A stretch of 64,000 bases of DNA. Origin: a virus (taxonomy: Duplodnaviria > Caudoviricetes). The notes under the pieces were generated by a model that ran no database searches, was not told the DNA's origin, and worked only from the letters and a program-made list of their open reading frames with translations. The position numbers and the translations under genes were made by a program. Location of the stretch: IMG/VR virus record IMGVR_UViG_3300032243_001028, positions 1 through 64,000 of that record, one strand, 5' to 3'. Positions 4,146 through 24,521 of this stretch are shown piece by piece (within the stretch, counting starts at the first letter, position 1; each line of letters begins with the position of its first letter).

Positions 4146-5183
4146 ATGACTATAACTACAACTGCTACATTATCCGAAACTGAAAAAACAGCACTTGATC
4201 GTATAAACGATTTATCAAAGTTGTCGGCTAAGTTGCCTGAACTACTAATTGCTATCGGTTCGCAAGCTGTAAATGCTGACCAAGCCGAAATCATCAAAAA
4301 CAACCTATCCAAATCTGGTGGTCTTACTATGCGTGGGTCTGCTGAAACAACTAAAAAGAAAGTAAAAGAAAAAGTGGCTGAAACTCTATCTGCTGACGAG
4401 GCACTAGCAAGACCTAATGGCGAGCTTTATTACACTCGTAATTGGGGCGAACACAAAGATACTGCTGTTCTAAAACAACTCCGTTCTATCAACCAATTCG
4501 CACTATTTTATGGAAGTCCGGGAACAGGAAAAACTGCTCTTGTTGAGGCTACTTTTGGTGAGGAACTTCACACAGTTCTAGGTTCTGGCGATACCGAAGT
4601 TTCTGACTTGGTAGGTGGCTATGTCCAAACTCCTAGTGGCTCTTTTGAGTGGATAGACGGGGCATTAGTCAAATCTGCTGAACGAGGTGAGGTCTTGTTC
4701 ATTGACGAGATCGGACTTATTGACCCGAAAGTTCTATCAGTTGTCTATGGTCTAATGGACGGCAGACGAGAACTGCCAATTACTCAAAATCCCGAAAGAG
4801 GCACTATCAAAGCCAAAGACGGATTTTATGTTGTCGGGGCTACTAACCCTAATGCTGTTGGTGTTGTTCTATCAGAGGCGTTGCTCTCACGATTTACAGC
4901 ACAGGTGGAAATCACTACTGACTGGGTTCTTGCTAAGAAGTTGGGTGTCCCTGCCATTATCACAACAGCAAGTCAAAATCTAGCTAAGAAGTTTATGTCT
5001 GGCGAAGTTTCTTGGTGTCCTCAAATGCGAGAACTGCTTGCGTTTAGGGACTTGGAAAAGGTGTTCGGAACTAAGTGGGCTGTTAGCAACCTAATCTCGT
5101 CAGCACCCGAATTGGATAGACCTATCGTTGCCGAAGTTCTGTCTAGGGTTTATGGCGAGGAAGTAAAGACTGCCAAAATCTAG
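4146..5183 (+). CDS. MoxR/CbbQ/NirQ-family AAA+ ATPase
   Basis: Walker A GSPGTGKT, Walker B LFIDE, GATNP sensor, LSEALLSRF arginine finger. Confidence 0.9.
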   Translation: MTITTTATLSETEKTALDRINDLSKLSAKLPELLIAIGSQAVNADQAEIIKNNLSKSGGLTMRGSAETTKKKVKEKVAETLSADEALARPNGELYYTRNWGEHKDTAVLKQLRSINQFALFYGSPGTGKTALVEATFGEELHTVLGSGDTEVSDLVGGYVQTPSGSFEWIDGALVKSAERGEVLFIDEIGLIDPKVLSVVYGLMDGRRELPITQNPERGTIKAKDGFYVVGATNPNAVGVVLSEALLSRFTAQVEITTDWVLAKKLGVPAIITTASQNLAKKFMSGEVSWCPQMRELLAFRDLEKVFGTKWAVSNLISSAPELDRPIVAEVLSRVYGEEVKTAKI

Positions 5184-5208
5184 GTATTGTGTCCCCTAGC
5201 TTTTTGGC

Positions 5209-5242
5209 GAGGGTAGGTAGTTATAGTTGGCTACCTACCCTC
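5209..5242 (+). terminator. Stable hairpin/terminator
   Basis: GAGGGTAGGTAG...CTACCTACCCTC 12-bp stem. Confidence 0.6.
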
Positions 5243-5310
5243 AAATCAAAACTTGACAAAAACAAGATCAACTCTATAAAATCAAGATACGACAACTGAA
5301 AGGAAATCTT

Positions 5311-7155
5311 ATGTCGCACTTCGGAACTAACTCAAATGGTGTAAAGGCTACACCGAAAGAGTGGCTACCTATTGGAAAAACTATTGGCGAACTTGCTAAC
5401 AAGTGGTCTGGTAGAACTGACCTAATCGCTTATGTTGGAACAAAACTAGACGCACCTGTTCCTGCTCTATACAACCCTGTTTCATCAGAGATAGAGGTAA
5501 ATACTGAAATTGCTTTCGGCACTATTCCACCAAGTTTTATTCCTGACTTGGCAGACAAAGATAATCAGTATGAGTTTCCAAAGGCTATCGGTGCTATCTA
5601 CCACGAGGCTTGCCACGCTAAGTTCTCTCGCTGGTCATTGGAACAAAGTTCTAAGGACTTGACCCCTAGACAAAACAAAGCTCTCCACTTGTTAGAGGAA
5701 AGTCGCATTGAGGGATTTGGTGCTAAGGCTATTCCAACTAATCGTTATTTTCTAACTTCTTGTGCCTTAGAGATCGTGTTAGGCGAGTGTGATGTTGATA
5801 CGCTTTCCCTAATGTCTGAAACTAGGGCATTGGCTCACTTGGCAGGATTAGTCTTGGCAAGAATAGATGCCGGTATTCTTTACAGAAGTGATGTTGAGGG
5901 TATTGCTGAAATGCTAGAAACAAAACTAAGCATTGACTTTATTGAGAAGTTGAGAGAACTATGGCTAAAAGCACAAGCTCACGATAATCACCACAACGCT
6001 ACTGAACTTTACCCTCTTGCTATTGAGTGGGACAGACTTGTATCTGAACGAGCCAAAGAAAAGGGCGAGGACGATACTCAGGGTGGTTGCGAGTTCCCTA
6101 GTGGTGAGGGCGAGGGCGAGGGCGAGGGCGAGGGCGAGGGCGAGGGCAAGAGCAAGGGTCGCAGTAAGACCATTGAGGAAATGCTGAAAGAAGTTGAGAA
6201 CGCCAAAGAAAACGCTGAAATGACTGCTAACGACAAATTAGCCGATCAGCAAGAGGGCGAACACTCAAAAGAAAAAGCCAAGAGCAAGAGCAACGCCACA
6301 GAGGAAAAGAACAAGCACAAGGCAGTTGGTCAGCGTGTATTCGGTGAGAAAGAAACTGTTGGTTCTAATGGTTCAGGTTCTCGCTTAGAGGACACTCGCA
6401 AGCCTACTTCTGCCGAAAGAGCAAGTGCTGTTCTAATTGCTAAGTTGTTTATGAAAGCTAAATACAGGAACAGAACTGAAATCAAAATGAACTCGGTTAT
6501 GCCACAGGGCAGGTTGCGTTCTAGGGCTATGGTTCAGCGTGAGGCTCTTAGGTCTAAGGGCATTATGTCGCAGGTAGAAACTTGGCGACACAAAACTCGC
6601 AAGCACACCGAAACACCTAACTTGTCTATCGGGATTATGGTAGATGTTTCAGGTTCTATGGGTTCTGCTATGAAACCTATGGCAAGCACAGCTTGGATTT
6701 TGAGTGAGGCAGGTAGGCGTGTTCAGGCTAAGACCGCTATGGTCTATTTCGGTTCAGGCGTGTTTCCAACCTTGCGTGTAGGACAACACTTGGAAGATGT
6801 AAATGTCTATACAGCACCAGACGGAACTGAAAAGTTTGACTTAGGATTTCAGGCACTAAACGGACAACTTGATTTACTTGGTGGAACAAGTGCGAGGTTG
6901 CTAGTAATCGTTTCTGACGCTTGCTACACCAACGAGGAAATCAAAGCGTGTAAGTCTTGGCTACAAAGATGTAAGCAGTCAGGCGTAGGCGTTCTATGGA
7001 TAACTTACGATCAGGGTGTTTATGCCAACGCTGTTATTGAGGGTTCGGACACACAGCTTGTAAAAGTCAAGGGTGCGATTACCGAAGTTGCTGAAATTGT
7101 TGGTAAGGCAGGGGCAGAGGCTCTTACCAAAGCAGGTATGCGAATAGGGCGATAG
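5311..7155 (+). CDS. vWA (CobT-like) partner protein with N-terminal HExxH region
   Basis: YHEACHA...LEESRIE; (GE)n linker at about 6103-6147; MIDAS DVSGS; C-terminal VIVSD; adjacent to the MoxR AAA gene. Confidence 0.85.
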   Translation: MSHFGTNSNGVKATPKEWLPIGKTIGELANKWSGRTDLIAYVGTKLDAPVPALYNPVSSEIEVNTEIAFGTIPPSFIPDLADKDNQYEFPKAIGAIYHEACHAKFSRWSLEQSSKDLTPRQNKALHLLEESRIEGFGAKAIPTNRYFLTSCALEIVLGECDVDTLSLMSETRALAHLAGLVLARIDAGILYRSDVEGIAEMLETKLSIDFIEKLRELWLKAQAHDNHHNATELYPLAIEWDRLVSERAKEKGEDDTQGGCEFPSGEGEGEGEGEGEGEGKSKGRSKTIEEMLKEVENAKENAEMTANDKLADQQEGEHSKEKAKSKSNATEEKNKHKAVGQRVFGEKETVGSNGSGSRLEDTRKPTSAERASAVLIAKLFMKAKYRNRTEIKMNSVMPQGRLRSRAMVQREALRSKGIMSQVETWRHKTRKHTETPNLSIGIMVDVSGSMGSAMKPMASTAWILSEAGRRVQAKTAMVYFGSGVFPTLRVGQHLEDVNVYTAPDGTEKFDLGFQALNGQLDLLGGTSARLLVIVSDACYTNEEIKACKSWLQRCKQSGVGVLWITYDQGVYANAVIEGSDTQLVKVKGAITEVAEIVGKAGAEALTKAGMRIGR

Positions 7156-7304
7156 CACAATTTTCCGAGCAGGTCAAGTTTTTTATTTCCTTTCTCTTGA
7201 CCTGTTTGGAATACCAAAAAAAAAGATTTGGAAAAATACTTGACAAGCTCTTATTAGAGAAAGTAAAGTTGGAACTACAACCGAGAAATGAAAGGAACTA
7301 CCAA

Positions 7305-7631
7305 ATGTGCGATAACCCGACACACGATCACGATAACGAGGACGAGAGCTTATTGTCTGTTATCCAAAATGAAATCAACGAACCACAAGATGTAGCTGCG
7401 ACTGCTATCCAAATCTTTTGTGCGATTTCATCAGCATTAGTTCAGGCTGAAATGCCTAACCCTGCTATTTACAGAGCATTTGAGCCTATGAAACTTCTAG
7501 CTGAAAAGTTAGGTGATCAGGAACTAAACGACATAGTTATCACTTGCGAAATGGAACACCACGAAGTTATTACAAAAATGATTTCTAAAATGCGACACCC
7601 TGCTAGTAAGAGAAAGAAATGGGGTAAGTAA
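7305..7631 (+). CDS. Hypothetical protein
   Basis: Start reassigned to ATG 7305 after promoter 7240 and GAAAGGA SD. Confidence 0.65.
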   Translation: MCDNPTHDHDNEDESLLSVIQNEINEPQDVAATAIQIFCAISSALVQAEMPNPAIYRAFEPMKLLAEKLGDQELNDIVITCEMEHHEVITKMISKMRHPASKRKKWGK

Positions 7632-8434
7632 TGCCTAACTGGGTCTATAACACGCTAACTGTTTCAGGTAAGCCTGACGAGATAAAAGCCTTTACGGAAA
7701 AAGCTGATAAGTCAAGACCGAGAAGTGATGACGAGGGCAAGACCATTGAGTTAGAGGAAACTGACGGACTTTCTTTCTGGAACTTCATAGCACCACCCGA
7801 GGAAAAATACGATCTCTATTTCGCCATTTCTGACGGAACAGCAGACCAAACTTGGGGCTGGTATGGCTGGAACAGCGAGAACTGGGGAACTAAGTGGGAC
7901 GCTAATGATACGAGTATGTCCCCGTCCCCTGACGAGATAACCGAGGACACTGGGACAGTGATCTACTATTTCTCTACTGCTTGGAGTTATCCTGAACCTG
8001 TTGTTAGAGCTATGGCAGAACAACACCCGACACTACACTTTCACTTGCGTTCCGTTGAGGAACAAGGTTGGGGTGCTGAACTATCCGGAACTGACGGACA
8101 AATCTATACCGATACAACTTGGGACATACCGAGTAGTCATAAAGAGTGGGTTGATACCGACCAGGAGGGAAGTTGTGTTTGTGCCAACAACGACGACGAG
8201 GACGACTGGTATAAGGACTGTCCGAGAGATGATCAAGAGTTTATTGTTGTTATTCAAAAGTCTTACCGAGTAAGAACTAACACAGCAGAGAACGCTTACG
8301 AGCTTGCTATGGAACAGGGAAACGACCCTGACGAGCAAATGGAAGTTCTTGACGAAACGACAGCTTGGGTTCTTGACGATCAGGGAGTTAGACAATACCC
8401 GACCCTGAACAGCGAAGTTCCAAAGCTGGACTAA
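7631..8434 (+). CDS. DUF1281/YubB ferredoxin-like domain protein
   Basis: MPNWVYNTL, WYGW..ENWGTKW and FSTAWSYP signature motifs. Confidence 0.8.
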   Translation: MPNWVYNTLTVSGKPDEIKAFTEKADKSRPRSDDEGKTIELEETDGLSFWNFIAPPEEKYDLYFAISDGTADQTWGWYGWNSENWGTKWDANDTSMSPSPDEITEDTGTVIYYFSTAWSYPEPVVRAMAEQHPTLHFHLRSVEEQGWGAELSGTDGQIYTDTTWDIPSSHKEWVDTDQEGSCVCANNDDEDDWYKDCPRDDQEFIVVIQKSYRVRTNTAENAYELAMEQGNDPDEQMEVLDETTAWVLDDQGVRQYPTLNSEVPKLD

Positions 8435-8443
8435 AATAAACTT

Positions 8444-8550
8444 CGGTGAGTTTATGCTTTCTCTCACCGAGAACGGATAGTTATTTCCCCTCTACTATCC
8501 GTTCAGGGACTAGGTAATTTTTTGGTGGTTCTCTTTCTTACCTAGTCCCT
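8444..8550 (+). ncRNA. Three tandem hairpins with pyrimidine-rich loops (candidate sRNA)
   Basis: Stems CGGTGAG/CTCACCG, AACGGATAGT/ACTATCCGTT and AGGGACTAGGTAA/TTACCTAGTCCCT. Confidence 0.5.
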
Positions 8551-8619
8551 CTCTAAAACTTGACAAAACTTGACACAGGGGTATAGGCTAAACAAACCAC
8601 TAAACGAACAGGAAAAGAA

Positions 8620-8904
8620 ATGCTATTTAGACAAGCACTAGGACACATAATCGCTGAACACCGGCAAGACAAAAAGCTCACGCTACGCCAAACAGTAAAT
8701 AGAGGATCAGGGCGTATCTCGCTTACTTACCTATGGGAAATAGAAAAAGCTCGCAAAGAAGTCAGTAGTGAAATGCTGATAGAGGTTGCTCAATGTTTGG
8801 CTATTGAGCCTAGTGATCTGGTAATCAAAATCGGTATGGTTATGTGTGGTGGAGTTCCAAACTACTTGCCGATAGAACTTGACGAACAGCTTGTAAGTCT
8901 ATAA
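8620..8904 (+). CDS. XRE-family HTH regulator resembling actinobacterial ClgR
   Basis: LFRQALG..IAEHRQ....TLRQ......ISLTYLWEIEKARKEVSSEML. Confidence 0.75.
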   Translation: MLFRQALGHIIAEHRQDKKLTLRQTVNRGSGRISLTYLWEIEKARKEVSSEMLIEVAQCLAIEPSDLVIKIGMVMCGGVPNYLPIELDEQLVSL

Positions 8905-8935
8905 ACTGAACTTATCCAACTGAAAGGAAATCAAA

Positions 8936-9361
8936 ATGGATAAAGAAACTGAACCGCAAGCAACAGAAATGAAAATGTCCAACACTTGCTCTTGCGAGGT
9001 TGAGGACGAAACAACAGGCGAAATGACTTGGAGCAACGAATGTTTCGGTTGTTTTGAGGACGATAAGCAATACTTCACAGACGAGTTCCTAATGCCATAC
9101 CTGAACAGCAAGGGTTGGGACGAGGACACGATCATCAGAGTTGTTGGCGAGAAAATGAATTGGGACAACACTAGTGGTTGGACAGAAGTTCCTGCTAAGG
9201 ACTTACTAAAAGCTCTTGCCATAAATGGCGATTACACGCTAAGGGTTGAGATTACGCCTGAAAAGGAAATGGTAATTACCCGATCAAGCCACGATGAATA
9301 CGGAGCTAGTTTTAGATTTGAGTTATCACCCGAACAGGAATACAATTCTTATGAGGAATAA
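8936..9361 (+). CDS. Hypothetical protein
   Basis: GAAAGGA SD; 141 aa, acidic. Confidence 0.7.
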   Translation: MDKETEPQATEMKMSNTCSCEVEDETTGEMTWSNECFGCFEDDKQYFTDEFLMPYLNSKGWDEDTIIRVVGEKMNWDNTSGWTEVPAKDLLKALAINGDYTLRVEITPEKEMVITRSSHDEYGASFRFELSPEQEYNSYEE

Positions 9362-9690
9362 CTAAATAAACTTTTGCTAGGCATACCGAAACCTAAACCT
9401 AGAAGTTTTAGTTTTAGGTGGAGAACCAGAGGTGTCCGTTTAGGAACAATGTTGGTGGTATGGGGATTACTACCCTGAAAACCTAGTGAAATCCGACCAA
9501 TGTATGTCGCTAAACTACGCTTGTTCCTTAGCAAGAGAAAAAACTAAGGGTCTTGACTTCCAGACCTAAAAATTGTAGCCCTATTGGAGTTGATGGTAAT
9601 AACTATCCGGTTTTCTTTTTTTGTATTTTATTCTCTCTCCCTAAAAGAAAAAAATGCTAAACCTGAGTAAGTTGATAAACTGCTCACCTA
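9362..9690 (+). ncRNA. Candidate structured non-coding RNA ending in an anti-SD hairpin and a pseudoknot
   Basis: About 350-nt gap with no credible + strand ORF in a gene-dense region; multiple short stems. Confidence 0.4.
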
Positions 9691-9712
9691 AACTTCTTAG
9701 AAAAGGACAACT

Positions 9713-10012
9713 ATGAAATACGATCTCTACGCAAATGAGGACAACAACTTTATCCCTGATGTAGTCATTACCAAAGTTGAGGGAGCTTGGCTAGTAGATG
9801 CTGGCAGGGAAATCAGTTTTGAGTGGCGAGGAACTGAACAATGGTGTCAAATGGAAATTGACGAGGGCTTTTGGCTAATAACCGAAACTAAATACACTCC
9901 GGATTTTGAGGAGTGGCTTGACGAGAACCTAGACCAATACGACAGCTTAGAGTTTATGTTTGACCTAAACGATCTAGTGCCGAACCACTACAAGATAGAG
10001 CTTGATAAGTGA
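9713..10012 (+). CDS. Hypothetical acidic protein
   Basis: AAAGGA SD; ORF track. Confidence 0.65.
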   Translation: MKYDLYANEDNNFIPDVVITKVEGAWLVDAGREISFEWRGTEQWCQMEIDEGFWLITETKYTPDFEEWLDENLDQYDSLEFMFDLNDLVPNHYKIELDK

Positions 10013-10210
10013 TCAATTGCGAAACCTGTAAAGGCAAACCCCTAGTTTGTAAAATGTATGCTCACGCTAATCGGTGGTATTACTTCTGGTGGTGGCGTGG
10101 AGTTGATAATTTGTTTTGGAAAATCCACGAAAAGTTTTGTAAAGAAACTTGACTTGTATTTGATTAGCTGGTAATTTGGAAACATAACCCGAATGAAAGG
10201 AAAATAAAAA

Positions 10211-10729
10211 ATGGGTATGGATGTTTATGGAAAAAATCCAAAAAGCGAAAAGGGAACTTACTTCCGTAGAAATGTATGGGGCTGGCGACCACTATGGGAC
10301 TACTGCCTAGATCGACACACAGACCTTGCTGGCAAGGTAAAGAACGGACACACTAACGACGGTGATGGACTTGACGCTAACGACAGCGTGGAGCTTGCTC
10401 GCTTGCTTGTAAAAGATTTGTCTGACGGAACAGCAAGTACTTATGTAAAAGCAAGAAACATACACTTATCACTTTTGCCAAGAGAAAATTGCGAGTGGTG
10501 TCAAGGCACAGGTATTAGAACCGACAAGGTTGGCGTTGAGAACAAAATGTCTGATCGTGAATTATCACCGGATTTGGCTATTCTCTTAGGTAGAGAAAAG
10601 GGTTGGTGTAATGGTTGTAATGGCGAGGGCAAGAAAGATAGTTGGGAAACTAACTACGATTTGGAGCTTGATGACATAAAAGAGTTTGCCGAGTTTCTAA
10701 CCGATAGTGGTGGATTTGAGATTTGTTAG
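10211..10729 (+). CDS. Phage protein with DnaJ-like CxxCxGxG insertion
   Basis: MGMDVYG..YFRRNVWGWRPLW...CEWCQGTG...CNGCNGEG...SGGFEIC. Confidence 0.75.
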   Translation: MGMDVYGKNPKSEKGTYFRRNVWGWRPLWDYCLDRHTDLAGKVKNGHTNDGDGLDANDSVELARLLVKDLSDGTASTYVKARNIHLSLLPRENCEWCQGTGIRTDKVGVENKMSDRELSPDLAILLGREKGWCNGCNGEGKKDSWETNYDLELDDIKEFAEFLTDSGGFEIC

Positions 10730-10824
10730 TGAAACCACTAAACTAAGACCATAGGCAAACGCCTAAATACCTAAGCAAGTATCTAAACTGCTTACCAAAA
10801 AACCACCGATAACAAAGGAATAAA

Positions 10825-11232
10825 ATGGAATTTACAACAGCAGGGTTAGTAGCAACAACACCACGCCACATAGTAACGCAAGACGGATTAGAGATTACAA
10901 GTTTCCGTTTAGCAAGTAGTGTCAGGCGTTGGGATAGAACACAAAATCGCTGGGTTGATAGCGACACAAATTGGTTTACCGTTACTTCGTTTAGAACATT
11001 AGCGATAAATGTTGCTGTAAGTGTCAGCAAAGGTGATCGTGTAGTTGTTTCAGGTAAGTTGCGTGTTCGTGATTGGGACAATGGCGATAGAGCAGGAACA
11101 AGCGTTGAGATAGAAGCTGAAACAATTGGACACGACTTGACCTATGGCAACAGCACTTTCAGCAGAACAGCGAAACCTAGTGGCCACATAGAACCACCAG
11201 CCGACACCGTTGAGGATTTGACCAGAGATTAG
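10825..11232 (+). CDS. ssb: Single-stranded DNA-binding protein (actinobacterial type)
   Basis: GLVATTP..ITSFRLAS..RRWD...WVD..TNWFTV...SVSKGDRVVVSGKL.VRDW...VEIEAETIGHDL. Confidence 0.9.
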   Translation: MEFTTAGLVATTPRHIVTQDGLEITSFRLASSVRRWDRTQNRWVDSDTNWFTVTSFRTLAINVAVSVSKGDRVVVSGKLRVRDWDNGDRAGTSVEIEAETIGHDLTYGNSTFSRTAKPSGHIEPPADTVEDLTRD

Positions 11233-11246
11233 GCAACCGAAAAGAA

Positions 11247-11280
11247 TTCGCCAAACTAAAAACTTGGCGAATTTTTTTTT
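11247..11280 (+). terminator. Intrinsic terminator
   Basis: TTCGCCAA/TTGGCGAA stem plus T run. Confidence 0.75.
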
Positions 11281-11347
11281 GCCGACACGCTTGACTTACC
11301 GATACCGATAAGGAACAATAGAACTATCCCGAAACTAAGGAGAAAAA

Positions 11348-11731
11348 ATGGGAGAAATAAAGCAAGCCCTAGTTATCAAGACAGCAGGGGACATACAGGT
11401 TGTAAGCTTTACTGCCGAAACCGAATACGAAGTTATCAAGAAAGCCGTTGGTGGTTATTTAGAGATCGTTAGATTATCGCCAACTATGATTATGTGGACA
11501 AACGAGGAAGGTAAACTAGACAGACTACCTTACAACCACAGAGCAACTGCTATTTGGAATTATTATTTTGGAGCTACGGACATAATCGTTGGTGATGTAA
11601 TCCTTACAGGTGGAACTGATACTGACGGAAACTGCTTAGGACTAAGCTTGGCAGACGGAAACAAAATTCAGGTTTTAGTATCGGCTACTAGACTAGAAAA
11701 AGCCGAGATGAAAAAAGGGGAAACCAAGTGA
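11348..11731 (+). CDS. DUF3846 domain protein
   Basis: AVGGYLEIV...NEEGKL..LPYN.RAT...DIIVGDVILTG. Confidence 0.85.
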   Translation: MGEIKQALVIKTAGDIQVVSFTAETEYEVIKKAVGGYLEIVRLSPTMIMWTNEEGKLDRLPYNHRATAIWNYYFGATDIIVGDVILTGGTDTDGNCLGLSLADGNKIQVLVSATRLEKAEMKKGETK

Positions 11732-11997
11732 AAGTTGATTACGAACTATCAAGAATAGCGATCTGGAAAGTAGAGAACGCTAAGACAAAGTTGGAACTTA
11801 CTTATTCTGCCGAGTATGGAGCAGAGATTAGAGCAAGCCTGACTTACCGAACACTAAACGGAGCTTGGATAAAAACAAAAAAGTATTACAACCGAGCCGA
11901 GTGTCTAATGGATTTCGCTACCCTAACCAACAATAAAAAACTGATCAGGGTAATAGAAAGAACAGAGCAGTATCAAAGCTATTTAGAAAATAGTTAG
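11728..11997 (+). CDS. Hypothetical protein
   Basis: GTGA coupling with the upstream gene. Confidence 0.6.
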   Translation: MKVDYELSRIAIWKVENAKTKLELTYSAEYGAEIRASLTYRTLNGAWIKTKKYYNRAECLMDFATLTNNKKLIRVIERTEQYQSYLENS

Positions 11998-12111
11998 ACA
12001 CACCGAAAAAATAAATGAAAATAAACTTGACTTAGATTAGATAAAAGACTAAGTTAGAAGTATTGGAAGTTCCAATAGCCGAAATCGGCACAGAACTAAG
12101 GAAGTAAATAA

Positions 12112-12414
12112 ATGGAAAATCAAGAACCACAAGAAGTAAAAATCACAAGCAAAAAAGCAAAAGAAGCTTATGCCTTGCTAAAAACTATCAAGCTCCAAAT
12201 GGCAGAACTAGAAACACAAAAGGCACAGGCTACCGAAATCTTGGCACAGGCTCTAAATGGTGCCAAGCGTGGAGTTGTTGCTGGACAGGGTTCGTATGTT
12301 TTACAGGCAGGAAAGAACACGAGTTTTGATCGTGCCTTGATGAAAGAGAAGTTCCCTGTTGCGTTTGACGAGTGCCTAAGAACAACCGAATACGAATACA
12401 TAAAACTCGTATAG
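12112..12414 (+). CDS. Hypothetical coiled-coil protein
   Basis: Promoter at 12027, AAGGA SD. Confidence 0.7.
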   Translation: MENQEPQEVKITSKKAKEAYALLKTIKLQMAELETQKAQATEILAQALNGAKRGVVAGQGSYVLQAGKNTSFDRALMKEKFPVAFDECLRTTEYEYIKLV

Positions 12415-12426
12415 CAAGAAGTAGTG

Positions 12427-12475
12427 ATCCCCTAATAAACCGAACCGAGAGTTTGGATTAGGGGATTTACTTTTT
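12427..12475 (+). terminator. Intrinsic terminator
   Basis: ATCCCCTAAT...ATTAGGGGAT stem plus T-rich tail. Confidence 0.65.
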
Positions 12476-12525
12476 ACCAAGAAAAGTGGTAAGGTAGAAC
12501 TACCACCGAAAATGAAAGTAGAAAA

Positions 12526-12708
12526 ATGACCAAGTATGTAAAACACCTAACCAATGATGAACTACTAGAACGCCTAGCAGACGAGTTAGTTAGAACTCAC
12601 CGAGAGACCGCCATAGACCTAGGCTATTGGGAAACAGCAAGAGAAGTTGTAGAACGCTTTTACAGCGTGGAAGTAAAACTAACTATCAAGAAAGCAAAGA
12701 AAAAATGA
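12526..12708 (+). CDS. Hypothetical protein
   Basis: ORF track; purine-rich leader. Confidence 0.6.
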   Translation: MTKYVKHLTNDELLERLADELVRTHRETAIDLGYWETAREVVERFYSVEVKLTIKKAKKK

Positions 12709-13013
12709 CCGAACAGGAAAAGCCGAAAGGCGATTTTAGTGATCCAAAAAGTTTCTATTTCAATGACTACCTAAGCAACCACATAGGACACAAGCTTGAA
12801 GTTGTTGAGTATTGTTGTGGTGTGTGTGGAAAGACCACCGACTTTATGCTCCGTTGTTTCCAAGATGACATAGATGATACTTGTTCCAACGACCCTGCTG
12901 GTATTGCTAGGGAATGGGTGAAACCGCATTGCGAGTGTAATCACAGCCCTTGGACAGCAGACAAGATTTCTAATCTAAAAGAAAACTTGACAGAAAGTAA
13001 TCAAGCCGAGTAA
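12705..13013 (+). CDS. Cys-rich hypothetical protein
   Basis: Start reassigned to ATG 12705 (ATGA coupling). Confidence 0.6.
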   Translation: MTEQEKPKGDFSDPKSFYFNDYLSNHIGHKLEVVEYCCGVCGKTTDFMLRCFQDDIDDTCSNDPAGIAREWVKPHCECNHSPWTADKISNLKENLTESNQAE

Positions 13014-13046
13014 AGTGGAACTACCACCAAACATTAGGAGCAGAAA

Positions 13047-15401: not shown

Positions 15402-15579
15402 GGAAGTAAGCCGAACCCCTTAGCCTAAATGGTTAGGGGGTTTAGCTTTGCCCGAAAAAAGACGATCTGGTGAAACCCGACACGCTAAAAAATAGTTGCC
15501 GATAAACTTGACTATTTCTATACGGAGATAGTAATCTTGGAGTAGTTAGGTAAATCGCCTAACAGATACGGAGATAAAA

Positions 15580-15792: not shown

Positions 15793-15900
15793 ATAGACTT
15801 CACTAGGCAAAAATCAAAACTGAGTAATCAAAACTGAGAGCCTAGTGAAACACCTGAGCAAGTGTATAAAAGGCTCACCTAAATCTTTAGAAAGGCAAAA

Positions 15901-16077
15901 GTGAAAGACAGAAAATCTAAGATCGCCTGTTGGTCTTGTGGCAAGCTTACGGAAGTAAAATACATTGGTGAGAACACACATAAACAAGAGTGCCGAGAGT
16001 GTAAAGAGTGGCGAGCAGAACGCTATGCTGTATTACAGGGGAACACCGATAAAGAGAGATTAGATAATGCTGAATAA
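15901..16077 (+). CDS. Small CxxC protein (58 aa, not in ORF track)
   Basis: GAAAGG SD, GTG start, CWSC...CREC. Confidence 0.5.
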   Translation: MKDRKSKIACWSCGKLTEVKYIGENTHKQECRECKEWRAERYAVLQGNTDKERLDNAE

Positions 16078-16269
16078 AATTGCTAGAAGTCTTAGAAGTA
16101 TTAGCGGAGTGCTAATGAATACAGGACACCGACTTAGTTGGTATGCGAGCAAGCTTGATACCAAGTCAAGAGATCGTAGAAACGCTAAAAAATAAAATGC
16201 GGATAAACTTGACAAAGTTTCCAAACAGCAACTAAACTGAATACATCAAGACGAAAAGAGGTGAAAAAA

Positions 16270-16497
16270 ATGGGAAAAAAAGTTGATACTTGGACTTGGT
16301 TCGTTGCTCAATACGAGCAACAGGGATACAAATCTCTAAACCAATTCGCTATCGCAACAGGCTTACAGAAGTCTAGCCTTAGCCGATACTTTCATAATCA
16401 ACGACACATTCCGTCAAATACTTTGGCGGTGCTATGTCGTGAGCTGGAAGTTTCTCCAACTGAATTACTGATCGCAATTGGCGAGAAAGTAAAGTAA
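16270..16497 (+). CDS. XRE/Cro-like HTH protein
   Basis: SLNQFAIATGLQKSSLSRYF....PS..TL..LC..LEVSP. Confidence 0.8.
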   Translation: MGKKVDTWTWFVAQYEQQGYKSLNQFAIATGLQKSSLSRYFHNQRHIPSNTLAVLCRELEVSPTELLIAIGEKVK

Positions 16498-16562
16498 GTG
16501 CCGAACCTGAGCAAGTTCTAAAAAGGCTCAACTAAAAACTAATAGAAAGTTGCGGTGAAGTT

Positions 16563-16754
16563 GTGAAAACATTTTTGGCAGTATTAGGTTTATGGTCTGC
16601 TGGTTGCGGTATCTATTATGGATTTATAGCCGACAATAATCAGCGAGCATTTGAGATTGGATTTACTTTGGCATTTCTGCTATTGTTTGTAGCGTTGCTA
16701 CTAGCAGTTGCCGAGCTTCCTAGATTTATTAGAAAGCGTAATAGGCGTAAATAG
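16563..16754 (+). CDS. Small 2-TM membrane protein
   Basis: Two hydrophobic stretches and a basic C-terminus. Confidence 0.55.
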   Translation: MKTFLAVLGLWSAGCGIYYGFIADNNQRAFEIGFTLAFLLLFVALLLAVAELPRFIRKRNRRK

Positions 16755-16901
16755 ACTTGGGAGAGGGTTTCTTTCATTTCCCCTCTGCCGAACACACCTG
16801 AACAAGTGTCTAAAAGGTTCATTTATTTTTTAGAGATCGGGAATTTTTTATGCCGATTAGAAGTTATTATTTATGTAATGACTAACTACAAAGGAGACAA
16901 A

Positions 16902-17060
16902 ATGAAAAGAACTAAATTCACACCAGAACGCCTTGCTGAGCTGGACAGACTAGACAGATTTAGAACCTATGACTTACTTTATAGGGCTATGCTTGCCGGT
17001 CTAATCCCCTTTGAGCCGAACCTAAGACTAAAGCGTATGGTCAGGGTAAAGAAGTCTTAG
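16902..17060 (+). CDS. Small basic hypothetical protein
   Basis: AAGGAG SD before ATG 16902. Confidence 0.55.
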   Translation: MKRTKFTPERLAELDRLDRFRTYDLLYRAMLAGLIPFEPNLRLKRMVRVKKS

Positions 17061-17171
17061 AGAGATTTCTAGAGATCCAAAAAATAAATACCGACACGCT
17101 TGCTTATTTCCATTTGGAGATGCTAAAGTTGAAGTAGTTAGGTGAAGTGCCTAGCAGTTACGGAGTAAAAA

Positions 17172-17450
17172 ATGGAAAAGAAAGAATACCGAGTTTATTG
17201 GTGGATTGAGATTTACCCTTTCGGCTATGACAGAGATTGCGAACTCAGGAACATTGAACTAATGGGAACTGTTTTTGCCGAAGATGAAGATGATGCTATG
17301 GATCAGGTTAGAGAAGATAACGAGATTATTGGTGATGATTTCATTGGTTACCCTGACCCTGATTATGTTGATAGTCACCCCGACATTGAGATAGTTTGGA
17401 CTGGCGATATGTCTGCCGAGTTAGTTTTGGACTTGACTAAGCAGGACTAA
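17172..17450 (+). CDS. Acidic hypothetical protein
   Basis: Own promoter-hairpin cassette, GGAG SD. Confidence 0.7.
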   Translation: MEKKEYRVYWWIEIYPFGYDRDCELRNIELMGTVFAEDEDDAMDQVREDNEIIGDDFIGYPDPDYVDSHPDIEIVWTGDMSAELVLDLTKQD

Positions 17451-17465
17451 ACCCCGAGAGTAGAA

Positions 17466-17500
17466 AGCCCTTAGCCGAAAGGCTAGGGGTTTTTTATTTT
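17466..17500 (+). terminator. Intrinsic terminator
   Basis: CCCTTAGCC-GAAA-GGCTAGGGG plus T run. Confidence 0.8.
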
Positions 17501-17595
17501 TGGACACGCCAGAATAATCTTGACTAAATGCCGATAAGTGATCTAGGATTTTAGTAGTTAGGTAATCTCCTAATCAAAATAAAGAAAGTAGAAAA

Positions 17596-17874
17596 ATGAA
17601 ACTACAAGTTACGAAGTCAAGCCCAGTCTGGCAAAAGATTATTGCCGATAATAAAGAGTGGTTTTCTAAATCAACACTGGAGTTTTTCAAATCAACTATT
17701 TTTTGGTCAAGCCTGAAAGAAACTGAACAGGGTCTAAAGTTTGTAACTAGCGAATGGAACTACCAGCAGGACACTAAGGTTTTTACTATCAGGCTAGTCA
17801 CCGATACAGGCATAGAAACTATTAGTGAATACGGACAATACCCTAGCCTTGTAGAAGCCTTACGAGCCTTATAG
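17596..17874 (+). CDS. Hypothetical protein
   Basis: Cassette gene; WFSKSTLEFFKS..FVTSE motif. Confidence 0.7.
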   Translation: MKLQVTKSSPVWQKIIADNKEWFSKSTLEFFKSTIFWSSLKETEQGLKFVTSEWNYQQDTKVFTIRLVTDTGIETISEYGQYPSLVEALRAL

Positions 17875-18025
17875 AGATCGTGAAACTGAACCCTTGCCGA
17901 AGCTCAGGCAGGGGTTTAGTTTTATCTAGACACGCCAAAATAAAATACTTAGAAACTTGACGGAATAAAACTTGCGGTGATAGAGTTTTATTAGTTAGGC
18001 AAGTTGCCGAACAGAAATGAGAAAA

Positions 18026-18223
18026 ATGGAAAACTTTCTAGACATCAACAAGGTTGCTAAAATTGTAGGACTGCCAGCAACTAACGAAGTCTGCCCTAGT
18101 TGTGATGAACTTATTACGGCTACTAATCCCCTGATAGATACTGAACGCTATACGGCTAATGATAAGACTGGCTATTGCGATAGTTGTTATGACCCGACCC
18201 CTTACTATCCCAAGATAGATTAG
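18026..18223 (+). CDS. CxxC..CxxC protein (paralog of 13047..13295)
   Basis: CPSC....NPLIDTERY...DKTGYCDSCYDPTP. Confidence 0.7.
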   Translation: MENFLDINKVAKIVGLPATNEVCPSCDELITATNPLIDTERYTANDKTGYCDSCYDPTPYYPKID

Positions 18224-18231
18224 GGGGGATT

Positions 18232-18396
18232 ATGTTTATAGAGAAACCAGCTGACGCTGAACAAGCGGAACAATTCGCATTAGGACTAATCCAAGAACCA
18301 AAAGATTACGGAACATTAGTTTTAGTTCCTTGTAAGCACAAGGTATTCTGCCGAACTCACGGAAGTTTCTGGATCAGGAAAAGATTTAGAAAATAG
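18232..18396 (+). CDS. Small hypothetical protein (54 aa, not in ORF track)
   Basis: GGGGGA SD; MFIEKPADAEQ...RFRK. Confidence 0.45.
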   Translation: MFIEKPADAEQAEQFALGLIQEPKDYGTLVLVPCKHKVFCRTHGSFWIRKRFRK

Positions 18397-18500
18397 AAAC
18401 ACGCAAAAAAAAATTATTTATTTATTTGACTATTTCTATACGGAGATGCTAAAGTTGGATTAGTTAGGCAAACGACCTAACGGAAAATGGAGATGTAAAG

Positions 18501-18695
18501 ATGTGGGAATACGGAGATGATGAAGTTTCTGTTGTTGTGTCTTTCACTTGCGACAAATGCGAGTATGAAAATGAAGACAGCGAGCAAACAATAGGCAGGG
18601 GTGAAGGTCAGCACATAGTAATCTGTGATGAGTGTGATACCGAGAACACGATCATCATTGAGCCACCTGAGCCACCTGAGCCTTGGGAAGACTAA
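18501..18695 (+). CDS. Zn-ribbon protein (paralog of 15580..15792)
   Basis: VSFTCDKCEYEN...ICDECDTEN. Confidence 0.7.
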   Translation: MWEYGDDEVSVVVSFTCDKCEYENEDSEQTIGRGEGQHIVICDECDTENTIIIEPPEPPEPWED

Positions 18696-18818
18696 TCCTA
18701 AACACCTGAGCAAGTGTCTAAACTGCTTATTTTTATTTGCTACATACTTGACTATTTCCAGCTGGAACTGGTAAAGTTTTATTAGTTAGGAAAAATCACC
18801 TAGCGGAAATGAGAAAAA

Positions 18819-18998
18819 ATGTTTTACTTACAGACAACATCAACCCTAGTAAGACTTTCTAATGGAGAAACTTTTACTCAATGTGAAATCTGCGGTAGAT
18901 GTTATGAGAACGAACACTGGGACAGAACCAAGATAACCAGGAACGACTGGGCTTGGACTTGCCACCACAGCGACCAGGATACCGGAATACTAGAATAA
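18819..18998 (+). CDS. Small Cys/His protein (59 aa, not in ORF track)
   Basis: Follows promoter-hairpin at 18748; MFYLQTT...CEICGRC...TGILE. Confidence 0.55.
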   Translation: MFYLQTTSTLVRLSNGETFTQCEICGRCYENEHWDRTKITRNDWAWTCHHSDQDTGILE

Positions 18999-19195
18999 TC
19001 CGGTTGCCGATAATCCCCTGGTAGAGATACCGGGGGTTTATCTTTACCAGGTGCGACCTGGTGCCAGGATCTAAAATCCAGGGACAAGCTTGCCAGGATA
19101 AATTATTAGACACGCCAGGAAAAGATTTGACTTTTCCCGGGTGGAACTGGTAGATTTTTATTAGTCAGGTAAAACCCCCTGGCAGAAAGAAAAAA

Positions 19196-19543
19196 ATGAA
19201 CCAGGAACAGCTAGAACTATTTGAGATGATAGTTGATGATGCCGGTATGTCTATTAACTACTGGGCAAGCACAGCAGAACACAGCACAGAAAAGCAAACT
19301 TACCAGATCACTTTATTACCGGACTGTGTTGATGAAACTGCCGGTGTAGTAGATAAGACAATCTCTTACCAGGATTTATTAGACGCTACCAGGAAGCTTG
19401 CTAGCGGTGAAGTAAGCGTGAACCCGGCCACAAAGTCAGTCTGCCAGGCAATTATTAGCGACCCGGCAGATGTAGATTATGACGCTACTGATACGGACGT
19501 TATTGTCCAGGTTGCTATGTTTGGTGAAATTGTATTCGGCTAG
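19196..19543 (+). CDS. Phage hypothetical protein
   Basis: INYWA...DYDATDTDVIVQVAMFGEIVFG C-terminal motif. Confidence 0.75.
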   Translation: MNQEQLELFEMIVDDAGMSINYWASTAEHSTEKQTYQITLLPDCVDETAGVVDKTISYQDLLDATRKLASGEVSVNPATKSVCQAIISDPADVDYDATDTDVIVQVAMFGEIVFG

Positions 19544-19740
19544 ACAACTAAGAGATGTCCCCCTGGTAGAGATACCTGGGGGATTATTTCTATCCTGGCC
19601 AGGACTGCCAGGGCAAGCTAAACCAGGAACCAGGAACCAGAAACAGTTAGACACATAAGGTTTAGAGTAGAGCCGGACAGGTTGATTATTATATGCTTAG
19701 ATTATTAGAGAACTTTCTCTACTTATACGGAAGGTATAAA

Positions 19741-19962
19741 ATGAAAAAATTTATTATAAGAGCTACCATTGCTTTACTGCTGGCTATTGCCGGTTCCTTA
19801 TCAACACAAATATCCAGGCTTTATTTAGATCAATATATTTTCTTTGATGATAATGCCAGCACTCTTGCTATGTATGCCAGGTGGGAAGTTGTTACCTGGG
19901 TATTTGCCGGGCTATCCTTGATTACCCTGGCCTGGGCTATTATCTCTACCAGAAAAGATTAA
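19741..19962 (+). CDS. 2-TM membrane protein
   Basis: GGAAGG SD; two hydrophobic helices. Confidence 0.6.
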   Translation: MKKFIIRATIALLLAIAGSLSTQISRLYLDQYIFFDDNASTLAMYARWEVVTWVFAGLSLITLAWAIISTRKD

Positions 19963-19969
19963 ACCAGGG

Positions 19970-20662
19970 CTAGTCTTTTTTTACAAAATGATAATCAGCG
20001 TCCGGCCCATTATTACAAAACATTCCGTAGTTCTCAAAGCCGATAGAATCCAGGTACTCAATAATTGTTTCTCTTTCCGGTGATCCAATATTGTACTCAA
20101 CATGCCGAAGCTCAATAATTAAATGCTTACATGATTTAATTACTTCAGTGGCTCCCATAAGAACATCTAGCTCTGCTCCCTGGACATCAATCTTTACCAG
20201 GTCAGGTAGATTGAACTTTTTACTCTTGACTACGGAATCTAAAGTTTCGCTTTGAAGTTTTACAATTTTAGAATCATCATATAGAAAAGTAGCTTCCGGA
20301 TTATATGCCGGGTTCTCTCTATAATATGAGTTACCACCAAAGTCTGTATTGTTTTGGTAGAAATCAATTGTCTTGCCGGACTCGCTACTTAGTAAGCCGA
20401 TGTGATACTTATGGTTGCTTTCTATATACAGTGGTTCAAATATGTCAGTGGCGTCAAATAAAACTATTTCAGATCCTGGCCAGACTTTTTCAGCTTCACT
20501 AGTCCAGTGCAGAACACAGGAGCCGATGTCATATATTACTCCAGGAGTAAATCCATAATGAGTTTTTATAGCAGATAGGTAAGCTGCATGTTGCCTAGGA
20601 ATAGACATACCAGTCCGCACTCGATTTACATGATCTAAGGTTTCTTTATCAAAGTTTTTCAT
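19970..20662 (-). CDS. FkbM-family SAM-dependent methyltransferase
   Basis: IYDIGS, ETLDSV, DLVKIDVQGAELDVLMGA. Confidence 0.85.
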   Translation of the reverse strand: MKNFDKETLDHVNRVRTGMSIPRQHAAYLSAIKTHYGFTPGVIYDIGSCVLHWTSEAEKVWPGSEIVLFDATDIFEPLYIESNHKYHIGLLSSESGKTIDFYQNNTDFGGNSYYRENPAYNPEATFLYDDSKIVKLQSETLDSVVKSKKFNLPDLVKIDVQGAELDVLMGATEVIKSCKHLIIELRHVEYNIGSPERETIIEYLDSIGFENYGMFCNNGPDADYHFVKKD

Positions 20663-22997: not shown

Positions 22998-24395
22998 ATG
23001 GCTAAAAGTATCATGGAGCAGATCGCGATGCTCCCCCCTGAAGAACAGGCTAAAGTGCTATCCGGTATGGATGCAGACTCACTCATGTGGGACTGGTCAG
23101 TCTGGGGTAGACCAGAGCAACAAGCACCTGAAGGCGACTGGAACATCTGGGCTTACATTGCTGGTCGTGGTGCTGGTAAGACTAGAACTGCTGCTGAATG
23201 GGTTCGTGAAGAAGCTAAGCACACAACTACAGGACAGAGGCGCTTTGCTTTAGTTGCTCGTACTGCAGCTGACGTGCGAGATGTAATCGTTGAAGGTGAG
23301 TCTGGCATTATGAATGTCACTCCACCTAGTGAGAGACCTTTATATGAACCCTCTAAGAGAAGACTTACTTGGCCTAATGGTAATACGGCTACTTGTTTCA
23401 CTGCTGATGAACCTGACTCTTTGCGTGGTCCTCAGTTTACTCATGCCTGGGGCGATGAGATCGCTGCCTGGAGACAGACTCCTGATGCAGCAGGTATGAC
23501 TGCTTTTGATAACCTTCGTGTTGGTACTCGTCTAGGAGCTCAGCCTAAGATCATAGTAACTACTACACCTAAGCGTGTACCTCTACTCTATAAACTAATT
23601 GAAGAGAGCAAGACCGGTCGTGTAGTGATTACTAGAGGATCTACTCTTGATAACTCAGGTAACCTATCCGGTGCTTATCTTGATGCTATTACAGGAGTCT
23701 ATGCTGGAACCCGCCTTGCTCAGCAAGAGATCTATGGAGAGATGCTCGATGACGTTGAGGGGGCATTGTGGACATCAGAGCTTATCGACTTAGGTAGACA
23801 AGCTGGTATGCCTTTAGGTACTCCTCTAAGAATCATTGGAGTTGACCCTAGCGTTGCTGAAAACCCTAGAGATGAATGCGGTATCGTTGTATGCGCTGCT
23901 AGTTCTGAAAGAGATCTTTATAAGCGTCAAGCTTGGGTACTTGAGGACGCAAGCGTATTAGGCTCACCTACAGTCTGGGCACAGAAGGTCGTTGAGATGG
24001 CTCGCAAGTGGGGCTGCCCTGTTGTTGCTGAGGTGAATCAAGGTGGAGCCTTAGTGAAGAATGCTATTCACACTATTGACCCTAACATTGTAGTTCTTGA
24101 GGTTCATAGCAAATACGGTAAGGCTCTTAGAGCTGAGCCAGTTACTCTTGCCTATGAGCAAGGCAGAGTTCATCATGTTGGATTCTTGGCAGACTTAGAG
24201 AGTCAAATGTATTCTTGGATTCCAGGCGAGGGCAAGTCCCCTGACAGAGTTGATGCTCTTGTTCATGCTATGACTGCCTTACTTATCAAACCACCTTCAG
24301 GCTTTACAGGGGGCAAGATAACTGCTAAGTCCATGGGCAGCCGAAAGATAGATGTAGGCAGCAAGAGTAGCCGATCAATCTTTAGGCTTAGATAA
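22998..24395 (+). CDS. terL: Terminase large subunit
   Basis: Walker A GRGAGKT, LRGPQF..AWGDE Walker B, TTTP motif III, RNase H-like GVDPS and PDRVDA. Confidence 0.93.
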   Translation: MAKSIMEQIAMLPPEEQAKVLSGMDADSLMWDWSVWGRPEQQAPEGDWNIWAYIAGRGAGKTRTAAEWVREEAKHTTTGQRRFALVARTAADVRDVIVEGESGIMNVTPPSERPLYEPSKRRLTWPNGNTATCFTADEPDSLRGPQFTHAWGDEIAAWRQTPDAAGMTAFDNLRVGTRLGAQPKIIVTTTPKRVPLLYKLIEESKTGRVVITRGSTLDNSGNLSGAYLDAITGVYAGTRLAQQEIYGEMLDDVEGALWTSELIDLGRQAGMPLGTPLRIIGVDPSVAENPRDECGIVVCAASSERDLYKRQAWVLEDASVLGSPTVWAQKVVEMARKWGCPVVAEVNQGGALVKNAIHTIDPNIVVLEVHSKYGKALRAEPVTLAYEQGRVHHVGFLADLESQMYSWIPGEGKSPDRVDALVHAMTALLIKPPSGFTGGKITAKSMGSRKIDVGSKSSRSIFRLR

Positions 24396-24396
24396 A

Positions 24397-24433
24397 CTAA
24401 ACCCCCTAGCCTAGTAAGGCTAAGGGGCTTAGT
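24397..24433. terminator. Hairpin terminator between terL and the converging cassette
   Basis: ACTAAACCCCCTAGCCT...AGGCTAAGGGGCTTAGT. Confidence 0.6.
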
Positions 24434-24521
24434 GTCTAAGGATAAATGAAAGTAAAACCTTAGACTTTTGGGGGAGAGATTAGTCCCCCTGCCTATTAGA
24501 GCAAGGGGACTAACCTAACGC

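Follow-up and report, generated by a model that had tools for sequence, protein, structure and literature searches.

The window, as the whole stretch of 64,000 nucleotides is called here, spans the first 64 kb of IMG/VR virus record IMGVR_UViG_3300032243_001028, a single contig of 135,096 bp. It is the early region of an uncultivated phage from a lake, 135 kb in size and of the actinophage type. Three stable hairpins in this region, h1, h2 and h6c, lie 0-70 nt past a stop codon and ahead of the next promoter-like site. Their long loops are complementary to the ribosome-binding region (translation initiation region, TIR) of the gene or unit that each hairpin follows. This complementarity to the gene's own Shine-Dalgarno (SD) and start region is concentrated in loops, and loop and TIR have undergone compensatory change in many related genomes. 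The loop at the 3' end of the message probably pairs in cis with the TIR at the 5' end, as described for the icaR mRNA, and limits translation of three units: the operon of an AAA+ ATPase gene (AAA), a large gene labeled vWA/CobT-like (vWA), and the unit of genes 7305 and 7631. An earlier reading of the window, referred to here as the original prediction, had proposed a family of intergenic hairpins with loops antisense to ribosome-binding regions. For a subset, the loops of h1, h2 and h6c, this is borne out, and covariation in relatives shows that the complementarity is under selection. The original prediction also envisaged dispersed targets, and in this respect it has to be revised: in the supported cases the loop targets the TIR of its own gene or operon, which lies 1 to 1.9 kb further 5' on what is predicted to be the same transcript. 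A cis interaction between the two message ends accounts for this better than free small RNAs released from 3' untranslated regions and directed at other early genes or the host.

Loops and ribosome-binding regions in the window

Hairpins were folded with ViennaRNA, and long-loop hairpins were located by an explicit stem search (Table 1). The predicted energies are -12.6 kcal/mol for 5172-5208 (h1), -14.4 for 7168-7206 (h2), -14.3 for 13338-13369 (h3), -13.6 for 16757-16790 (h4) and -10.4 for 24433-24466 on the minus strand (h5), and the three hairpins within 8444-8550 (h6a, h6b and h6c) reach -46.9 kcal/mol together. All of these fold as originally described. A further claimed hairpin, at 9611-9650 on the plus strand, has a predicted energy of only -2.2 kcal/mol and is not credible as one.

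The feature that exceeds chance in the window is the identity of the partner: the loops of h1, h2 and h6c match the TIR of their own gene or unit. TIRs were compared as a curated set of 55 from the window. For the h1 loop (5185-5194), the two leaders of its own operon, those of gene 3585-4112 and the AAA gene, which have 21 identical nt in common, rank 1 and 2 of the 55. For the h6c loop, the leader of the gene that opens its unit, 7305, ranks first of 55 at -20.0 kcal/mol, and the next TIR follows at -14.7. The own TIR of the h2 loop is only fourth of 55 because other genes carry the same SD word. When shuffled loops are compared with the own TIR only, the observed energy is reached by 13/3000 shuffles for h1, 5/3000 for h2 and 3/3000 for h6c. 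In close relatives, the h6c/7305 pair has accumulated three substitutions, all of which keep the pairing through G-U.

Matches to any TIR were judged by a different test. Every loop-to-leader match quoted in the original prediction exists: 8 nt for the h1 loop at 3574-3581 and 4132-4139, 10 nt for the h2 loop at 5298-5307, 10 nt for the h3 loop in the gene 18026 leader and for the h4 loop in the 7305 leader, and 11 nt for the h5 loop in the 12526 leader. Each loop was shuffled 1000 times with its composition preserved, and P was the probability that the best contiguous match among the 55 TIRs equals or exceeds the observed one. P was 0.145 for h1, 0.55 for h2, 0.59 for h6a, 0.47 for h6b, 0.61 for h6c, 0.27 for h3, 0.29 for h4 and 0.09 for h5; among the nine loops tested, a value as low as 0.010 was obtained only for the additional hairpin 13304-13336. 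Shuffles scored by duplex energy gave p values from 0.39 to 0.013 for single loops and 0/300 for 13304-13336, and the energy sum over 11 loops exceeds all 300 shuffles. The original prediction had named shuffled pyrimidine-rich loops as its own refuting control. Eight of the nine loops stay at the level of that control, and a match between a pyrimidine-rich loop and some purine-rich leader is therefore ordinary. Complementarity beyond chance to other mRNAs in the window was found, over the 55 TIRs, for no loop except that of 13304-13336. No convincing partner among these TIRs was found for h6a, h6b or the long-loop hairpin 12416-12475; the h6b loop is replaced in the relative L002, in which the TIRs are unchanged.

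Compensatory change among related phages

Related loci were collected in two sets. A protein-guided IMG/VR scan yielded 12 loci with 54-95% identity in the AAA gene, and a profile scan added 80 more at 50-72% identity. Together with phage DSL-LC01, these 92 IMG/VR loci make up 93 sources; they contain 178 instances of the genes, and 146 of these are unique. Both the AAA gene and the vWA gene were located by tblastn, starts were assigned by a fixed start-codon rule, and loops were extracted by a fixed stem finder, which replaced a minimum-free-energy extraction that had split some loops. Whole 3' regions gave a noisy matrix because G-rich stems pair with C-rich parts of leaders, and the test was therefore restricted to loops as queries.

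In the first set, the relatives likewise have a hairpin over the stop codon of AAA and another one behind the following gene, and where the leader differs, the loop differs in a complementary manner. Six clades with two genes each gave 12 loops and 12 TIRs. The cognate TIR ranks first of 12 for 8/12 loops, second for one and third for one; the two misses are both AAA loops (L004 and L007). The cognate energy sum is -142.0 versus -91.5 +/- 8.2 for random loop-TIR assignments, and 0/20000 assignments reach it.

The same preference is seen in the full collection, in which 71 unique AAA and 60 unique vWA cases have a hairpin. The own TIR is within the top three for 22/71 AAA loops (among 73 unique TIRs) and 19/60 vWA loops (among 65 unique TIRs). 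At least 8 contiguous Watson-Crick pairs are formed by 19/71 cognate AAA combinations versus 3.5% of 4970 non-cognate ones, and by 30/60 cognate vWA combinations versus 8.8% of 3540. The energy sums lie at z = -8.8 for AAA and -11.4 for vWA, and 0/5000 permutations reach the observed sum in either case. The paired TIR words are diverse, 16 distinct ones for AAA and 25 for vWA, and the paired segments fall between -25 and +2 relative to the start codon, mostly between -17 and -4. When each cluster of TIRs is reduced to one representative (37 clusters for AAA, 34 for vWA), the median z over 20 draws is -6.1 and -6.4, respectively, and in 20/20 draws 0/2000 permutations reach the observed sum.

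A control within the same genome gives the same answer. In 49 cases versus 17, with one tie, AAA loops favor their own TIR over that of the adjacent vWA gene (Wilcoxon p 6e-7), and vWA loops prefer their own over the AAA TIR in 42 versus 14, with three ties (p 9.5e-7). In 82/146 unique cases, a stretch of at least 8 nt somewhere in the 3' region complements the own TIR. Loops account for 11% of the bases in these 3' regions, yet they fully hold 46/89 matches of at least 8 nt, and ten more matches lie partly in loops. In DSL-LC01, for which gene calls are available from GenBank, the loop after the vWA ortholog has 13 contiguous bases complementary to its own leader; its AAA hairpins match weakly.

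The AAA operon has two TIRs, and the hairpins appear to follow them. At least 10 TIR bases of the gene upstream of AAA are identical to those of AAA in 31/75 genomes, versus 1/70 when vWA is compared with AAA. In seven genomes in which the two operon TIRs differ, AAA is followed by two hairpins, one with a loop that matches the first TIR and one with a loop that matches the second. One or the other operon TIR is matched over at least 8 nt in 31/70 cases versus a control mean of 5.1 and a control maximum of 10 in 200 draws.

Hairpins after other genes do not show the same enrichment as a group. At the 80 loci of the second set, pyrimidine-rich loops after other genes rank their own TIR first in 6/43 cases versus 3.8 expected. 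A whole-genome catalog of hairpins was set aside, since poor gene calls made it too noisy past 27 kb. At 16704-16757 of L007, a distant relative, an 18-bp stem with a 16-nt loop follows a different gene, and the TIR of its own operon ranks first of 46 at -18.3 kcal/mol; it is possibly a further own-TIR instance outside the AAA and vWA genes.

Proposed mechanism and rival explanations

Stable hairpins follow the stop codons of the AAA operon, gene 5311 and, in this clade, the 7305/7631 unit directly, and the long loop of each is complementary to the SD region of its own unit together with neighboring gene-specific bases. In the mechanism that we propose, transcription of the 3' end of the message would expose the loop, which would then pair in cis with the TIR 1 to 1.9 kb upstream, with the stem staying closed. 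Because the TIR would pair with the loop of a closed stem, the resulting structure would be a long-range pseudoknot, which is beyond ordinary folding prediction. This pairing would compete with binding of the 30S subunit at the SD and so limit further initiation, and it would probably also speed decay of the finished message.

A number of points weigh against this proposal. That TIR and hairpin share one transcript is suggested by the positions of promoter-like sites and hairpins only, and promoter-like sites in 1-20000 occur at shuffle level (34 versus 34.8), although one promoter-leader cassette recurs ahead of many genes. Pairing in cells is a prediction from the sequences, and repression as the outcome, instead of stabilization, is suggested by analogy with icaR and with an anti-SD study in Bacillus subtilis. 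The rule is not universal: 52/71 AAA and 30/60 vWA unique cases fall below 8 contiguous pairs, 5 AAA and 10 vWA unique cases have no detected hairpin, and 33/89 own-TIR matches lie outside detected loops. In the window, 3/11 long-loop hairpins clearly obey it and the other eight do not, and for hairpins after other genes at the 80 loci, the own TIR ranks first in 22/211 cases versus 21.7 expected, on crude gene calls. The duplexes are short, 8-13 pairs within loops of 10-22 nt. Gene starts are heuristic except in DSL-LC01, and in the L009 clade the second hairpin was used once the first had failed to match, a post hoc choice. Finally, the related genomes are not independent, and clustering lessens the effect of kinship and does not remove it.

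The hairpins could instead give rise to stable small RNAs (sRNAs) derived from 3' untranslated regions (3'-UTRs), either cut off or formed by termination, that act in trans on the TIRs of other phage early genes or of the host. We consider this unlikely. Antisense RNAs usually seed their pairing through loops on stable stems, the loop of 13304-13336 pairs with the TIR of the distant gene 18232 more strongly than any of its shuffles, and the loops of h3, h4 and h5 complement a leader word of many early genes, with h4 forming at least 7 contiguous pairs with 21/55 TIRs (shuffle P = 0.06). Since a released fragment would also pair with the TIR of its own gene, the covariation is compatible with trans action on messages of that same gene. 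Against diverse targets stand the best matches, which are not above shuffled loops for 8/9 loops, and the supported loops, which favor their own TIR over that of the neighboring gene in the same genome. The covariation fits equally well with real pairing in cis that has a positive effect. A closed 5'-3' loop could shield the message from 5'-end-dependent or endonucleolytic decay, or it could keep terminating ribosomes near the start; ribosomes encounter h1 on terminating, because it overlaps the stop codon, and a 5'/3'-UTR interaction is reported for the B. subtilis hbs mRNA (PMC5737220). Such a role is improbable in our judgment: most paired segments cover the SD core, from -17 to -4, and should exclude the 30S subunit while paired, and the two experimental precedents for far-downstream anti-SD sequences both report repression in the accounts cited below.

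Mere terminators or stabilizers of the 3' end, with complementarity as a by-product of pyrimidine-rich loops facing purine-rich leaders, would explain why hairpins sit between stop codons and the next promoter-like sites, why matches to some TIR in the single window are at chance level, and why hairpins after other genes show no own-TIR enrichment. This explanation is disfavored and very unlikely. Base composition cannot produce a preference for cognate over non-cognate partners when the TIR sets are matched, and it leaves unexplained both the preference for the own over the neighboring TIR within one genome and the two loops that match two TIRs; moreover, loops of 10-21 nt without a U-tract are not those of canonical terminators. 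A cause at the DNA level, by which loop and TIR are inverted copies kept alike by recombination or paired sites of a DNA-binding protein, is scarcely credible. Inverted repeats are complementary by definition, and nothing specific favors this origin. It would need its own conversion events or its own protein for each of dozens of word pairs of 8-13 nt that lie 1-2 kb apart, and it does not account for the concentration of matches in RNA hairpin loops and over the SD, which is meaningful for RNA only.

Other elements of the early region, known systems and significance

Table 1. Hairpins, partner segments, promoter-like sites and genes of the window
Feature	Position	Strand	Description
h1	5171-5209	+	5' arm formed by last codons and stop codon of AAA gene; 10-nt loop 5185-5194
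h2	7163-7211	+	16-bp stem, 17-nt loop 7179-7195; 3' of vWA/CobT-like gene
h6a	8442-8471	+	Pyrimidine-rich 12-nt loop
h6b	8471-8504	+	Pyrimidine-rich 12-nt loop
h6c	8505-8550	+	13-bp stem, 20-21-nt loop 8518-8538; 3' of 7305/7631 pair
h3	13338-13369	+	Conserved-loop class
h4	16757-16791	+	Conserved-loop class
h5	24433-24466	-	Between convergent genes; looser version of h3/h4 loop; antisense-type only on minus strand
Extra long-loop hairpin	13304-13336	+	C-rich 17-nt loop; added by stem search
Extra long-loop hairpin	12416-12475		Added by stem search
Tight hairpin	5209-5242	+	Directly 3' of h1; 15 bp, 4-nt loop, -25.2 kcal/mol; kept in relatives
Leader of gene 3585-4112, SD-proximal	3574-3581	+	Same 8-nt word as AAA leader; complementary to h1 loop
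Leader/SD segment of AAA ATPase gene	4131-4140	+	Predicted pairing with h1 loop, -11.6 kcal/mol
SD segment of gene 5311-7155	5297-5308	+	Predicted pairing with h2 loop, 10 contiguous pairs, -12.0 kcal/mol
Leader, SD and start codon of gene 7305	7289-7306	+	Predicted pairing with h6c loop, 16 pairs, one bulge, -21.2 kcal/mol
G-rich word	18220-18229	+	Spans stop of gene 18026 and SD of gene 18232; complementary to 13304-13336 loop
Gene 3585-4112	3585-4112	+	First gene of AAA operon (3585 and 4146)
AAA+ ATPase gene (MoxR/CobS-like)	4146-5183	+	Pfam AAA_5 6.6e-20; PHROG 'porphyrin biosynthesis' 1.1e-22
Large early gene, label vWA/CobT-like	5311-7155	+	D-x-S-x-S motif readable at about 6642-6656
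Sigma-70-like promoter-like site	5253-5282	+	11/12 consensus positions (consensus match only); would start monocistronic vWA/CobT-like transcript
Promoter-like site of 7305/7631 unit	7240-7269	+	Consensus scan

The hairpins had been taken as one family, and they now separate into types. The loops of h1, h2 and h6c are gene-specific; those of h3, h4 and h5 are versions of one conserved sequence and do not complement their own TIRs. On different stems, h3, h4 and a hairpin in L003 display nearly the same loop of 13-14 nt, of which h5 has a looser copy. When the h3/h4 class was searched for with a covariance model, 11 matches were obtained in 71 sources (0.8 Mb), all of them training copies and their orthologs. 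The h3, h4 and h5 loops complement a word that recurs in the leaders of many early genes, at a level not beyond shuffles, and against their own genes h3, h4 and h5 were still unmatched with TIR windows extended to +15. They are a separate class, left unexplained by own-TIR pairing. The leader word that they complement is an out-of-frame or mini-ORF ATG with a purine run, 10-17 nt before the real start. It is present in the leaders of genes 7305, 10211, 12526, 13514, 14928, 18026 and 18819 and, on the minus strand, of 24743, 25168, 25632 and 26362.

The hairpin 13304-13336 stands apart as well. Its loop pairs with the G-rich word at 18220-18229 at -22.6 kcal/mol, with the next best TIR at -10.5, and not with its own TIRs. 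The word lies at the end of a paralog of the gene that precedes the hairpin. It is kept in two relatives, and its run length is 6, 8 or 11 among three related genomes. Because h3 and 13304-13336 are almost invariant in two close relatives, these relatives offer no covariation test for either of them. The paralogous small genes 13047-13295 and 18026-18223 encode a Cys-rich C-terminus and have 74% DNA identity over 84 nt (13211-13294 and 18124-18207). Complementarity links the hairpins behind the first paralog to two TIRs, those of the second paralog and of its downstream neighbor. The stop codon of gene 18026 is covered by a hairpin at 18198-18227, in which the 3' arm consists of the G-run that doubles as the SD of gene 18232.

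A scan of 1-20000 for canonical intrinsic terminators (GC-rich stem, 3-8-nt loop, U-tract) identified none of h1-h5 or h6a-c as such. Their loops measure 10-21 nt, and their flanks are without T-runs except 3' of the motif after h3 and h4. The stem search sets apart a type with tight loops, at 5209-5242, 11239-11279, 14208-14245, 15413-15443 and 17880-17925. The first of these is likely a 3'-end or terminator element; no U-tract is found 3' of it. The original prediction had placed several hairpins directly 5' of what it called a pseudoknot motif, and h3 and h4 do lie directly 5' of this repeated motif of about 37 nt. This motif has seven copies, at 9659-9695, 10767-10803, 13371-13407, 15850-15886, 16496-16536, 16794-16830 and 18702-18738. 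Its sequence allows an inner stem to be drawn, as well as a second pairing that involves a word further downstream, and a T-run ends three copies; the motif may be the terminator type of the phage. One copy lies in 9362-9712, a gene-free stretch of 350 nt with 95-98% identity in two relatives, about the same conservation as in the flanking genes. This stretch has no Rfam match and could be a non-coding RNA.

The closest large terminase is that of Actinomycetia phage DSL-LC01 (76.6% amino-acid identity), followed by those of Microbacterium and Gordonia phages. No near-identical DNA was found in named phages, and a search in distant mode gave three short matches only. DSL-LC01 is itself a lake metagenome assembly with a predicted Actinomycetia host, as reported in its description (PMC10611076). 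The DSL-LC01 ortholog of gene 5311-7155 is annotated 'cobalamin biosynthesis protein'. In the window this gene has no Pfam match and no PHROG match, and vWA/CobT-like is therefore a mere label; a GGCGAG repeat run at 6097-6150 within it encodes a Gly-Glu repeat. A scan of both strands of the 64 kb against Rfam gave no match at or above the gathering threshold of any family, and a tRNA scan of the window was also negative.

The early region at 3.5-19.9 kb runs in a single direction and consists of short units, each with a promoter-like site, a leader, genes and one or more hairpins. Many of the small early genes are preceded by a repeated promoter-leader cassette, in the order -35-like hexamer, 18-nt spacer, -10-like hexamer and a conserved small leader hairpin just 5' of the SD. 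Its copies are at 14846-14904, 15505-15577, 17097-17169, 17957-18026, 18423-18495, 18745-18817 and 19127-19196, and minus-strand copies lie around 24763-24791, 25192-25214 and 26380-26410. The intergenic and leader stretch 19000-19660 has unusually many CCAGG, CCTGG and CCGGG words. Between minus-strand early genes, units of 6-12 nt (CAGGCT-type) and a unit of 13 nt make up a long, imperfect tandem array at 25760-26125, and shorter runs resembling it occur at 24870-24900 and 25310-25345.

The proposed element can be compared with several known systems. Staphylococcal RNAIII and related sRNAs use C-rich loops on stable stems to seed pairing with SD sequences; they are dedicated trans-acting regulators with many targets. 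The phage loops are likewise unpaired, pyrimidine-rich and carried on stable stems, but their partner is their own message. Like intrinsic terminators, the phage hairpins are stable stem-loops between a stop codon and the next promoter. They differ from them in loop size (10-21 versus 3-8 nt), in the lack of a U-tract after h1, h2 and h6c, and in the gene-specific constraint on the loop. The interaction between the 5'- and 3'-UTRs of hbs mRNA reportedly shields an RNase cleavage site and stabilizes the mRNA, and it is not known as an anti-SD loop. A long-range pairing between the two ends of one mRNA, as reported for hbs (Braun et al. 2017, PMC5737220), is what is predicted for the phage.

The closest parallels concern anti-SD sequences. 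In icaR of Staphylococcus aureus, pairing of the 3'-UTR with the SD is reported to block initiation and to create a substrate for RNase III (Ruiz de los Mozos et al. 2013, PMC3868564). Both systems have a pyrimidine-rich 3' motif complementary to the SD region of the same mRNA. Whereas icaR, as described there, is a single bacterial gene with a long 3'-UTR, the putative phage element is presented by the loop of a stable hairpin that overlaps or immediately follows the stop codon of an early gene. It is also spread over about ninety genomes with compensatory change, sometimes with one loop per TIR. In B. subtilis, anti-SD-like 8-mers hundreds of nt downstream are reported to pair with the ribosome-binding site, to promote decay and to block initiation (Gill et al. 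2025 preprint, PMC12697547). The phage words are likewise far-downstream, pyrimidine-rich and complementary to the ribosome-binding site of the same mRNA; the drop in expression was reported in the B. subtilis study. The words in that study, by its account, are synthetic substitutions, and anti-SD-like words are depleted from natural genes. In contrast, the phage words are retained, displayed in loops, extended into gene-specific bases and co-evolving with the TIR. A 3'-UTR anti-SD sequence that acts on its own mRNA is thus already known. New features are the occurrence in phages, the presentation by a loop at the stop codon, the gene-specific extension, the cases of two loops for two TIRs, and the breadth of compensatory evolution. 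No phage example of such 3'-5' anti-SD pairing was found in the literature searched, which leaves out most subscription journals and the older phage literature.

For two-end pairing of bacterial messages, a handful of single cases is known, and few long-range cases are reported in the account of PMC12697547. The hairpins described here add to these a natural family, found in about ninety phage genomes and comprising dozens of compensatory states, which is evolutionary proof that such pairing is selected. They form a ready set of variants for testing how a 3' element controls initiation and decay. They also provide a search rule for phages and bacteria, in which the loop after a stop codon is compared with its own TIR and the TIRs of other genomes serve as controls.

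A broader arrangement is conceivable, although we regard it as doubtful. Each independent ribosome-binding site of the CobS/CobT-like early units would have a dedicated loop at the end of its message, forming a gene-addressed, closed-loop switch throughout the lineage; translation would take place only while the message is still being transcribed and would be shut off once the 3' hairpin emerges. If this is true, early genes would have a built-in one-shot timer, and 5'-3' pairing in cis would be a regular design principle of phage early mRNAs that can be found in other phage groups. It would perhaps replace chaperone-dependent sRNA control in hosts without Hfq, such as, to our knowledge, the actinobacteria.

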